From IMG/VR virus record IMGVR_UViG_2541047910_000001: a stretch of DNA of 8,624 bases, one strand, 5' to 3'. The notes under the pieces are model-generated. The model made no database searches and had not been told where the DNA came from. It saw only the letters and a list, made by a program, of their open reading frames with translations. Both the position numbers and the translations under genes were made by a program. Within the stretch, counting starts at the first letter, position 1. Each line of letters begins with the position of its first letter. Source of the stretch: a virus (taxonomy: Monodnaviria; Loebvirae; Hofneiviricota; Faserviricetes; Tubulavirales; Inoviridae). Shown here piece after piece: positions 2,580 to 4,292 of this stretch.

Positions 2580-4292
2580 TTAGGCACTCAGAATAATACG
2601 GAGCGCAACAAATCCCCATATAATCAGAAATATGGTTTCTACGGCGCTTCTGTTCTGCTCAATTAACGGACAATGGGAGTCAATTCTGTACTGGTGATTA
2701 AACACGCTGAATTCAACAACGGGGCAGGATGCTGAACGAGAGCCGATGTTAAATTCGTTTGTAAAAGGCAACAAGTTAATAATTGGCGTTAAAATATCTC
2801 TTGCCGTTGGCGTTTCTTCAAGCTCAGGCTCTTTTACACCGGGATCTTCTCCCAAATCTATATTGCCATTATTTCCAGTGTCAGATCCTGAGTTGTTATT
2901 AATGGTAATATCAATATTGACGTCAGCCCCTGCACTGTCAGATACAGGTGAAAGCATATCTAATAACGTTGGAGATAGCCTAAGTTCCGACATCGCAGAA
3001 GTTACTTCAGCCGGTGAAACCTCTTTAAACGGTAAGCCGTTATAATCGGCATTAACGGCAGCTTCAGACCACAGCTCGTTAATCATGTCGGCAAGAAGTG
3101 CTGGCGATACACTAACACTATCAAGATACTCCAGATAATCAATCATGGACTCAATATTTCCGGCCTCCAGTACTTCCGTCATGGCTTTATATTTGGTATT
3201 GGTCCAGATAGTAAGCTCACTCTTTTCATCAATATCTTTTGCGGTGTAATCCTCTTTTTCAGGAACGGCGCAAATCGTCGAATATCCACCATTTGACTGA
3301 TTAGTCGTTTTACAAGGCGTGTTGTGATACTGATATTGCTTGCCTGCTGTTAAATAAGCAACGCTGTAATACATGGGAAGCCCTGCTACATTTTCATACA
3401 TGGGAATACCTGCGGGAAATGAAGATGCGGCCGGGTTGCTATACAAGTGTGTAATCTCAGGTATTTCATAAAATGAGGAAGGATAAGTAAACTTATAATT
3501 CTGTTCAGTAAAGGATACATCTCCATTACTGTTGACAACTTTATTCGTCACAGTGCGTTCAAAATTTGTTAGTGTTTCAGTATAAGTACGCGAGTTATAG
3601 TCATTAAGATAATTTCTGGCAATTTCAGTTGGATTATCACCATAGTAATAAATTAGCTCTTTCGAATCCTGATAATAATAAAGTGCATTATCTGGCGTGG
3701 AATATCCTGTTTCAACACCTACAACTGGAGAACCCGCATCCACATTATTACGACTAACATGAAGGATTACCGGACTTAATTCCTGTGGTTCAAAATTAAC
3801 GGTTATCGTCTTACTTTCACCACTTTGACCACTGTACGTTACTTCATATAAATTATCGGAAATCTTTTTACCGTTAGTCATTACCATTACCGAGCCGTCA
3901 GATGAACTCAAAGAAGACGGAACAAAAGATGATACAGCAGCAGCAATACCCGCCCACGTTGCAACACCGCTCATTTTGTATGATGAGGCAGCAGGCAAGT
4001 ATTCGGCAGCATTAGCCGCAGCGCGGCCAACAAAAACACGGGTTGCTGTAAGCTGTGATGCCGTATAAATCGCATCATTGGCAGCAAAGCGACGAACAAG
4101 CACCCGGCCAACGACTTTAGGAATAACAGCCCGCGCAGCCACTGCTGCAATTGCTGGTACAAATGAATATGAATATCGGGGAAAGGAAACCCAGAGAAAG
4201 GAAAAAATAAAGGAATAAACCGTCAGCCTCTTAGCCCAAGAATAACGACATAAGCTGAGACGATCCCCCATAAAAGGGAACCCAATTTCCAT
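2580..4292 (-). CDS. pIII-like minor coat / host-adsorption protein; N-terminus uncertain
   Basis: 570-aa ORF directly after the major coat gene and its terminator; GGAG 8 nt upstream of the ATG at 4292; Gly/Asn/Ser-rich linker NNNSGSDTGNNGNIDLGEDPG; C-terminal hydrophobic anchor FLIIWGFVALRIILSA. The first ~106 codons are GC-rich and Ala/Arg-rich; an internal ATG at 3974-3972 precedes a signal-peptide-like MSGVATWAGIAAAVSSF. Confidence 0.65.
   Translation of the reverse strand: MEIGFPFMGDRLSLCRYSWAKRLTVYSFIFSFLWVSFPRYSYSFVPAIAAVAARAVIPKVVGRVLVRRFAANDAIYTASQLTATRVFVGRAAANAAEYLPAASSYKMSGVATWAGIAAAVSSFVPSSLSSSDGSVMVMTNGKKISDNLYEVTYSGQSGESKTITVNFEPQELSPVILHVSRNNVDAGSPVVGVETGYSTPDNALYYYQDSKELIYYYGDNPTEIARNYLNDYNSRTYTETLTNFERTVTNKVVNSNGDVSFTEQNYKFTYPSSFYEIPEITHLYSNPAASSFPAGIPMYENVAGLPMYYSVAYLTAGKQYQYHNTPCKTTNQSNGGYSTICAVPEKEDYTAKDIDEKSELTIWTNTKYKAMTEVLEAGNIESMIDYLEYLDSVSVSPALLADMINELWSEAAVNADYNGLPFKEVSPAEVTSAMSELRLSPTLLDMLSPVSDSAGADVNIDITINNNSGSDTGNNGNIDLGEDPGVKEPELEETPTARDILTPIINLLPFTNEFNIGSRSASCPVVEFSVFNHQYRIDSHCPLIEQNRSAVETIFLIIWGFVALRIILSA

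Follow-up and report, generated by a model that had tools for sequence, protein, structure and literature searches.

A conserved small ORF overlapping the start of the pIII-like gene in a YpfPhi/CUS-1-type inovirus prophage

Where does the pIII-like gene of this inovirus begin, and what does the unusual DNA at its 5' end encode? The stretch analyzed, called the window below, comprises 8,624 nt (IMG/VR record IMGVR_UViG_2541047910_000001, Inoviridae); all coordinates refer to the whole window, and the phage genes are read on its minus strand. Between the coat and DUF2523 genes lies a 570-codon open reading frame (ORF; 4292-2580, minus strand) for the pIII-like protein. A previous reading made from the letters alone (the sequence-only reading) had left two options for its N-terminus: a start at an internal ATG, preceded by a separate and translationally coupled small protein, or pIII carrying an unusual N-terminal extension. 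We compared the window with a set of 20 or more related loci, labelled L001 etc. and grouped in clades A (including A2) and B. The arrangement that we consider probable consists of two overlapping genes at one initiation zone, the first for a small peptide and the second for pIII with a long signal peptide and a conserved module.

A small ORF under selection at the pIII start

The small ORF has 27 codons (MEIELWKLGSLLWGIVSAYVVILGLRG; 4306-4223, minus strand, stop TGA at 4225-4223) and overlaps pIII codons 1-23 out of frame. Its ATG stands 4 nt past a strong Shine-Dalgarno (SD) sequence, GAGGT (4315-4311, minus strand), just downstream of the intrinsic-terminator-like hairpin and T run that lie 3' of the coat gene (4345-4317, minus strand; hairpin 4345-4323, a 10-bp stem with five GC pairs followed by TTTTACTT). 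An equivalent GC hairpin and T run precede the small ORF in all relatives, and SD-like motifs (GAGGT, AGGTGA, GGGGTG) are found 3-6 nt ahead of its ATG across clades, with none obvious in L077/L078. The encoded peptide consists of one hydrophobic helix, acidic at its N-terminal end and basic/Gly at its C-terminal end.

To identify the frame under selection, the ratio of nonsynonymous to synonymous substitution rates (dN/dS) was calculated by the Nei-Gojobori method (NG86), per segment and pairwise, from the DNA of homologues. Over pIII codons 2-22, dN/dS is 1.6-3.9 in the pIII frame versus 0-0.19 in the frame of the small ORF, so that in these shared bases the small ORF is the selected frame. 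All eight substitutions that separate the window from L008 are synonymous in the small-ORF frame (binomial P = 2e-5), as are 9 of the 12 between L002 and L003 (binomial P = 1e-4). Where the small ORF does not overlap pIII, as in L076 and L072, the pairwise ratio of nonsynonymous to synonymous differences (pN/pS) is 0.07-0.19, with P values down to 3e-9.

The position of the small ORF is also conserved. Every related locus has an ORF of this kind, with an ATG, downstream of the coat-gene terminator. It invariably lies between the coat gene with its terminator and the pIII-like gene, while the spacing to pIII varies: the pIII ATG comes directly after the small-ORF stop in L076, overlaps or abuts it in L079 and L081, and lies 90 nt downstream of the small ORF in L072. 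In the distant relatives L073, L074 and L080, another membrane-protein gene separates the two. This additional gene, about 104-129 codons long, specifies a multi-span membrane protein (L073 2506-2838, L074 2428-2817, L080 1362-1676) and starts at the small-ORF end or inside it. Because the small ORF is conserved where it does not overlap pIII, its conservation is not a by-product of pIII coding.

The peptide reads MWDIVVFLWGLLCAWAVIQGLSGH in the clade with 36% pIII identity and MTWQMIFFIWGLLCAYVVIRGIDG in Dulem virus 52, and it is also kept in Inovirus D_HF5_61. When the peptide alignment was used for a pattern scan of IMG/VR, 13 further diverged inovirus contigs proved to carry it, for example as MTINELWYFGVFLWGLVSAYAVIEGLKG and MDWQMVFFIWGLVSAWAVITGLRGV. 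Among the 16 distinct versions in alignment A3, which are 24-30 aa long, the pattern W-x6-(W/L)-G-x6-V-x2-G is invariant. Despite this conservation the peptide has no match in Pfam, PHROGs or NCBIfam, and the exact 24-27-aa sequences are absent from a collection of 15 billion proteins. Only a 40-aa version, beginning within the terminator stem, is called "hypothetical protein" in some older Yersinia pestis records, and the ORF is unannotated in the one RefSeq Escherichia coli copy inspected (strain D8). A tblastn search of a phage collection with a 28-aa version of the peptide, too short a query for this purpose, gave no match, and a full-text literature search for the small-peptide sequences returned no paper. 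We regard the small ORF as a conserved, essentially unannotated gene that is presumably translated.

Could the ORF act simply as a regulatory upstream ORF, or owe its conservation to pIII coding? Its very small size, the lack of a homologue in the three family libraries and the overlap with the pIII start would fit such a view, and the ORF could deliver ribosomes to a structured pIII start, for which the RNA fold described below gives a weak indication (z = -2.0). Yet the shared bases are under selection for the amino acids of the small ORF rather than for the pIII frame, the W...WG...V..G pattern is invariant, and the peptide is kept both in loci without overlap (L076, L072) and in those with an intervening gene (L073, L074, L080). 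Since the peptide sequence is under selection in non-overlapping contexts, a purely regulatory role is unlikely, and we consider this explanation as a whole very unlikely.

The long frame, its predicted signal peptide and its N-terminal module

Downstream of the overlap the long frame is the selected one. In a protein homologue search, full-length homologues with 89, 83, 66, 64, 37 and 36% identity align from residue 1, and across these six there are many invariant positions within residues 1-117; a repeat search with the alignment as query returned the same 17 proteins. A phmmer search of 1.84 billion representatives with aa 44-135 found nothing beyond close relatives and fragments. For codons 24-43, dN/dS in the long frame is 0.03-0.24 in five clade A pairs, and 0.57 (L005/L006) and 1.14 (L002/L003) in two others, each from few substitutions. 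The values are 0.00-0.17 for codons 44-106, with dS saturated in two pairs, and 0-0.33 for codons 107-127. This purifying selection in the long frame means that codons 24-127 are protein-coding, and by these ratios the Ala/Arg-rich part is among the most constrained parts of the protein. The phrog_3942 profile spans aa 28-570, module included. The option of pIII with an unusual N-terminal extension was thus essentially right, and it can be refined to a predicted signal peptide of about 43 aa followed by a conserved module of the mature protein.

The sequence-only reading had also described the first ~106 codons as compositionally unlike the rest of the phage, and this holds: GC content is 0.477 for 3972-4292 and 0.524 for codons 44-106, compared with 0.41 for the window. 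Residues 1-106 contain 17.9% Ala and 9.4% Arg, versus 6.9% and 2.2% in the rest of the protein. Only codon positions 1 (0.68) and 2 (0.56) of the 5' part are enriched in GC, while position 3 has 0.33, like the 0.35 in the remainder of the gene. The enrichment is therefore a matter of amino-acid composition (Ala, Arg, Val) and not of foreign DNA.

The alternative start proposed earlier is the in-frame ATG at 3974-3972 (codon 107). Both this ATG and the 63-codon ORF said to be coupled to it (4162-3971, minus strand, another frame), the TGA of which overlaps the ATG as ATGA, are indeed present in the window. Neither is conserved. Most relatives have Ile at codon 107, encoded by ATA or ATC in clade A2 and present in clade B as well. 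Ile stands there in L005, L006, L027, L028, L032, L033, L002 and L003, and Met107 is replaced by Ile in four of the six full-length homologues; it is thus not a conserved start. The 63-codon frame contains two stops in L009, which is 99% identical in nucleotides there, and stops also in L006, L028 and L033. It starts with a TTG that has no SD and that is lost (TCG) in clade A2, and its translation is 33-47% identical among relatives, compared with 73-89% for the long frame over the same stretch. The window holds many alternative-frame ORFs of similar size, and we rejected this one as a chance ORF on the basis of the stops and the low identity.

A pIII that begins at ATG 3974 with MSGVATWAGIAAAVSS... 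as its signal peptide, the 63-codon ORF being a separate protein coupled through the ATGA, would explain that overlap and make use of the moderately hydrophobic stretch past Met107. We give this arrangement almost no credence, given the Ile codons at position 107, the broken 63-codon frame with its lost TTG, the dN/dS of 0.00-0.17 in the long frame upstream of codon 107, and the lack of an SD ahead of both 4162 and 3974. Moreover, homologues down to 36% identity and beyond keep, in the long frame, the extension that such a start would leave out. Conservation of this kind was what the sequence-only reading had named as refuting evidence, and the comparative data refute the internal start. The suspicion that a separate small protein is encoded upstream was correct as far as the existence of a small gene is concerned; the gene is a different ORF at a different place, the 27-codon one at 4306-4223.

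What the retained N-terminus encodes was judged from hydrophobicity and the -3/-1 rule, together with dN/dS and the alignment. The predicted signal peptide covers codons 1-43 (4292-4164, minus strand). Its n-region (codons 1-22, 4292-4227) overlaps the small ORF, its h-region is LTVYSFIFSFLWVSF (codons 23-37, 4226-4182), and its c-region is PRYSYS (codons 38-43, 4181-4164), with cleavage predicted after Ser43 (SYS/FVP, the slash marking the site here and below). The 15-residue core at aa 23-37 is preceded by K21 and R22 and followed by P38 and S41-Y-S43. This segment is more hydrophobic than the one past Met107, and the earlier claim that a signal-like sequence begins only at codon 107 does not stand.

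The relatives argue for the same boundary. In an alignment of 18 sequences, their small -3/-1 residues share a column with S41 and S43 of the window, and the window site aligns with AQA/ALP, ANA/VIP and AQA/LP of relatives that have canonical 20-33-aa signal peptides ending in AxA. These signal peptides sit immediately ahead of a module homologous to window residues 44-127. Examples are L076 (MKKIVFVAVGIVFFCATANA/VIPAL..., with ATANA/VIPAL...RGAANSAIY around the site), L077 (...YRAQA/ALPLLAARAVIP... and YRAQA/ALPLLAARAVIPAILGRIVVKRAMQTAANDAVY) and L081 (...QQAQA/QALPV...RGFAANDPR). Cleavage of the window protein between S43 and F44 is therefore predicted from the position of the site in this alignment.

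The module itself, Ala/Arg-rich, occupies codons 44-106 (4163-3975, minus strand; AARAVIP...RRFAAND, with FAAND at 4088-4074). It can be aligned in the 18 sequences, which come from diverse inoviruses, directly after their signal peptides, and an AlphaFold model predicts it as helical with low confidence. The next segment, MSGVATWAGIAAAVSSFVPSS (codons 107-127, 3974-3912, minus strand), is Gly/Ala-rich and moderately hydrophobic, and it contains the non-conserved ATG at 3974-3972. All family members have a Gly/Ala-rich hydrophobic stretch after FAAND with a conserved (T/P)xW motif (TWAG/PVW); it is short in the window, and 25-35 residues long and transmembrane-like in distant relatives (L072-L074, L079-L081). 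Membrane insertion, oligomerization and hairpin formation are possible roles for it.

Three observations weigh against this interpretation of the N-terminus. Segments 23-37 and 108-125 are similarly hydrophobic on the Kyte-Doolittle scale, a signal peptide of 43 residues is unusually long, and the AlphaFold2 model (alignment A1, 7 sequences) has a mean predicted local distance difference test score (pLDDT) of 43, with residues 1-143 below 50 and the model uninformative there. We also weighed residues 1-127 as an uncleaved multi-span anchor, with transmembrane segments at 23-37, 44-66 and 108-125 and a positively charged cytoplasmic loop at 67-106. There are three hydrophobic stretches, and the nine K/R versus two D/E in residues 38-106 fit the positive-inside rule. 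Such an anchor is nonetheless quite unlikely: segment 44-66 carries R54, K59 and R63 and is clearly amphipathic in L051, Hessa-scale sums for the second and third segments are +5 to +8, and the relatives have canonical cleavable signal peptides right before the module. A twin-arginine translocation (Tat) signal at R67 R68 was considered and rejected, because the next hydrophobic stretch is 40 residues downstream, no S/T-R-R-x-F-L-K arrangement with an adjoining core and AxA is present, and the RR pair is KR, SR, AR or QR in relatives, past their signal-peptide cleavage sites.

The translation start of pIII

The sequence-only reading placed the start of the long ORF at 4292 with a good SD right after the coat-gene terminator. 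The ORF and the terminator are as described; the strong SD is better assigned to the small ORF, since GAGGT lies 18 nt from ATG 4292 versus 4 nt from ATG 4306. A weaker SD-like site, GGAG (4304-4301, minus strand), is found 8 nt upstream of ATG 4292 within codons 1-2 of the small ORF (ATG GAG), and the ATGGAG is kept in all clade A loci. We infer that this GGAG serves as the SD for ATG 4292.

Clade A offers no in-frame ATG, GTG or TTG between codons 9 and 50, and in L008 such codons are absent upstream of codon 107. With codons 24-43 under constraint, this places initiation inside the small ORF. Codon 1 of pIII is of start type in every locus (ATG in clade A and D_HF5_61, GTG in clade B within ATGTG, TTG in Dulem virus 52) and is the sole in-frame start-type codon upstream of codon 24 that is present in all of them. 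One SD precedes both start codons in clade B, L050 and L051, where they are separated by only 2-5 nt (ATGTG). The most likely start of pIII is ATG 4292, rather than ATG 4271 (codon 8): codon 1 is start-type everywhere, and codon 8 is CTG in L027 and L032.

The same CTG codons rule out codon 8 as a universal start. Initiation at ATG 4271 in the window would leave the architecture unchanged, with a 36-residue signal peptide (MGDRLSLCRYSWAKR...) that has a more typical n-region, and codon 8 is ATG, TTG or GTG in most loci. However, the Trp-Gly codons of the small ORF impose an NTG at this position, and no good SD stands at a proper distance from it. We consider initiation there unlikely.

RefSeq/PGAP instead begins the protein at GTG 4142-4140 (minus strand), giving 520 aa (WP_000741236.1, strain D8), while other databases hold the 570-aa version. 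If this annotation were correct, everything upstream would be untranslated. L009 and L008, the closest diverged relatives, have no GTG at this codon. Purifying selection in the same frame acts on the upstream codons 24-43, which align with the relatives' signal peptides, and the 520-aa product would have no export signal. The GTG start is probably mis-called, and we regard it as highly improbable that it is the true one.

It is also conceivable that pIII has no start of its own, ribosomes reaching it either through a -1 frameshift in the small ORF or through reinitiation at the small-ORF stop, where CTG 4226-4224 overlaps the TGA. The pIII frame is indeed -1 to that of the small ORF, no constraint is seen on codons 1-22 when they are read as pIII, and the pIII ATG is located at the small-ORF stop in L079 and L081 and directly after it in L076. 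Frameshifting is opposed by the small ORFs, in which no X XXY YYZ slippery heptamer, conserved or not, was found. Reinitiation is opposed by the codon at the stop, which is CTG, ATA, TCA or CTA depending on the clade and mostly not near-cognate, and a signal peptide starting there would have no charged n-region. Both routes together appear very improbable.

The choice of ATG 4292 is tempered by several results. When the small ORF was resampled over synonymous codons, chance alone gave an open -1 frame together with an NTG at codon 1 at P = 0.3-0.98 per clade. ATG 4271 is available as an alternative start in the window, as is codon 12 in clade B, L050 and L051. Extra constraint on the pIII frame within the overlap, assessed by the same kind of resampling, gives P = 0.07-0.63 per clade in what is a weak test with a post hoc charge criterion. 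The predicted mRNA fold of 4200-4350 (minus strand; minimum free energy -42.4 kcal/mol, z = -2.0) has the terminator as its first hairpin, leaves the SD and ATG of the small ORF single-stranded and pairs the GGAG/ATG 4292 region. Initiation of pIII could therefore depend on ribosomes translating the small ORF, for which the fold is a weak indication; the two starts may be coupled.

With ATG 4292 as the pIII start, the locus would work as follows. The small gene (4306-4223) and pIII would share one translation-initiation zone just 3' of the coat-gene terminator. Ribosomes on the strong SD would start 4 nt past it and make a 27-residue, single-helix hydrophobic peptide. Those that use the GGAG of small-gene codons 1-2 would start pIII at ATG 4292, 14 nt inside the small gene and in the -1 frame. 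pIII codons 1-22 would then be read in both frames and be free to vary in that of pIII, because their only contribution would be the n-region, positively charged, of a long Sec signal peptide. The hydrophobic core and the S-Y-S cleavage site would come from codons 23-43. After cleavage, mature pIII would begin FVPAIAAVAARAVIP..., with the Ala/Arg-rich helical module (FAAND) followed by the Gly/Ala hydrophobic stretch (TWAGIAA), and a variable body and the C-terminal membrane anchor would complete it.

The phage, its pIII and a candidate role for the small peptide

Window DNA is ~100% identical to prophages of many E. coli chromosomes, where they adjoin hipBA, a site near dif on the K-12 map, and the 570-aa protein is 100% identical to a copy in Y. 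pestis NCTC5923. These two matches identify the element, at the level of sequence, as a YpfPhi/CUS-1-type inovirus prophage. In that Y. pestis genome, two prophage copies of the pIII gene (L031 and L034) lie ~8.7 kb apart on contig NZ_UAVH01000007.1, a spacing consistent with the tandem integration described for YpfPhi (PMC4266046).

Six-frame ORFs and Pfam scans recover a minus-strand inovirus gene set: a gII-like Rep (6260-5208), a G5P-like single-stranded DNA-binding protein (5196-4879), an 83-aa membrane protein (4876-4625, phrog_3679) in the interval between genes V and VIII, the 77-aa Phage_Coat_B-like major coat protein (4590-4357), the pIII-like ORF, a pVI-like DUF2523 protein (2567-2280), Zot/pI (2276-1251) and a secretin (1251-181). 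In all related loci the coat, pIII-like, pVI-like and Zot genes come in the same order as in the window, and the order Rep, G5P, coat, small ORF, pIII, DUF2523, Zot was verified by Pfam for L076 and L077. An Rfam scan of the window gave no match. Compared with the E. coli D8 copy (L001), the window lacks 876 bp, with a junction near 214-218 at a 5-bp microhomology. The deletion takes the last ~69 codons of the secretin, which has 414 aa in D8 versus a 356-aa ORF with an altered C-terminus in the window, as well as an entire 82-aa downstream ORF and most of a 65-aa ORF; a functional secretin may no longer be made from this prophage copy. On the plus strand, an accessory module (6432-8539) encodes a helix-turn-helix repressor-like protein (148 aa), a 140-aa membrane protein, a 264-aa protein labelled PD-(D/E)XK nuclease domain protein in some genomes, and a DUF6953 protein (88 aa). 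Relatives carry other cargo at this position, such as the AbiJ-like genes in L007.

The 570-codon ORF is assigned as a pIII-like minor coat/adsorption protein from its gene position, its C-terminal anchor, a weak similarity to an attachment protein and the literature. The anchor, TIFLIIWGFVALRIILSA (2636-2583, minus strand), is the best conserved part of the protein and forms a helix at 544-569 in the model; the similarity is a weak match of aa 490-570 to an annotated 'attachment protein' (H3, E = 8e-5). By gene order only, and not by sequence, the ORF is probably YPO2277 of YpfPhi and puvA of CUS-1 from E. coli K1. Disruption of YPO2277 abolishes particle production, and puvA has been called a virion protein needed for receptor binding (PMC4266046). 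The same review of YpfPhi makes no mention of pIII, minor coat, adsorption, a start codon, a signal peptide, an N-terminal module or an overlapping small gene (PMC4266046).

Searches for remote relatives were largely negative. The 570-aa protein has no Pfam family at E <= 0.01, those of the Ff g3p N1, N2 and CT domains included. A PDB profile search gave no significant match, the best being P2 gpV/spike at aa 86-174 (E = 0.16-0.5), a likeness that we judged compositional and rejected, and Foldseek with the low-confidence model returned nothing from PDB at E <= 0.001. A tblastn search with the L077 and L081 pIII proteins matched only the C-terminal domains of Dulem virus 52, Inovirus D_HF5_61 and one Pseudomonas phage.

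In the Ff phages (M13/fd/f1), gene III follows the major coat gene and its terminator and precedes gene VI, and its product has a Sec signal peptide and is held in the inner membrane by a C-terminal anchor before assembly. The window protein shares the gene position, a predicted signal peptide and the C-terminal anchor. It differs in having no sequence similarity to Ff pIII by Pfam or PDB searches, a signal peptide of about 43 aa versus 18 in Ff, a mature N-terminus formed by the Ala/Arg helical module and Gly/Ala stretch instead of an N1 domain, no Gly-rich linkers, and a start inside another gene. Out-of-frame overlapping genes are known in small phages, such as those of phiX174 and the lysis gene of MS2. 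As in these, the same bases here are read in two frames, one of which dominates the constraint while the other encodes a tolerant segment; in contrast to these, the tolerant segment here would be the n-region of a signal peptide.

As to what the small peptide does, our best guess, by analogy and as a working hypothesis, is a minor virion or assembly protein comparable to Ff pVII/pIX, or a partner of pIII. Ff pVII and pIX (33 and 32 aa) are minor coat proteins located at the leading virion tip, where they bind the packaging signal. Size and polarity match these two: the peptides have 24-30 aa and one hydrophobic helix, they lack a signal peptide, their N-terminus is acidic and a basic residue lies close to the C-terminus, and the genes are in both cases tightly packed or overlapping with neighboring structural genes. 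They differ in location, the small gene following gene VIII and overlapping gene III while the Ff genes lie between V and VIII; that interval of the window holds the 83-aa gene (phrog_3679) instead. This second protein, at the gene VII/IX position, has a C-terminal transmembrane helix and a basic tail; the function of phrog_3679 is unassigned, relatives keep the protein at 87-90 aa, and it is probably another minor virion protein. Together, the small peptide and the 83-aa protein would bring the small structural membrane proteins to the Ff number, which is a further reason for the proposal, as is the report that integrative filamentous phages have no recognizable gVII/gIX and that their leading tip may differ from that of Ff (2023 preprint, 10.1101/2023.12.30.573655). 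A comparison by hhalign speaks against the analogy, with A2 scoring 1% probability against M13 pVII and 9% against pIX, at low power for such short sequences. We therefore put it forward tentatively, at somewhat less than even chances, that the peptide gene encodes a fifth structural/assembly protein of YpfPhi/CUS-1-type and many other integrative inoviruses, as a pVII/pIX counterpart or an obligatory pIII partner. If this is true, the initiation zone shared with pIII would fix the ratio of the two products.

An ambiguous start codon is by itself ordinary, and the interest of this locus lies in the small-gene family and the pIII module. For the tip protein of YpfPhi from the plague bacillus and of CUS-1 from extra-intestinal E. 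coli, the gene model can be corrected: the 520-aa RefSeq version drops the export signal, and the 570-aa version is the right one, with its first 43 residues probably a leader. The comparison also defines a FAAND/TWAG module at the N-terminus of the mature adsorption protein across a broad inovirus lineage, for which the receptor is reported as not yet known (PMC4266046). Finally, it brings to light a conserved gene for a small membrane peptide, one that usually escapes gene callers and is in no family library; its product is a concrete candidate for the tip of those integrative phages in which the preprint finds no gVII/gIX (10.1101/2023.12.30.573655).

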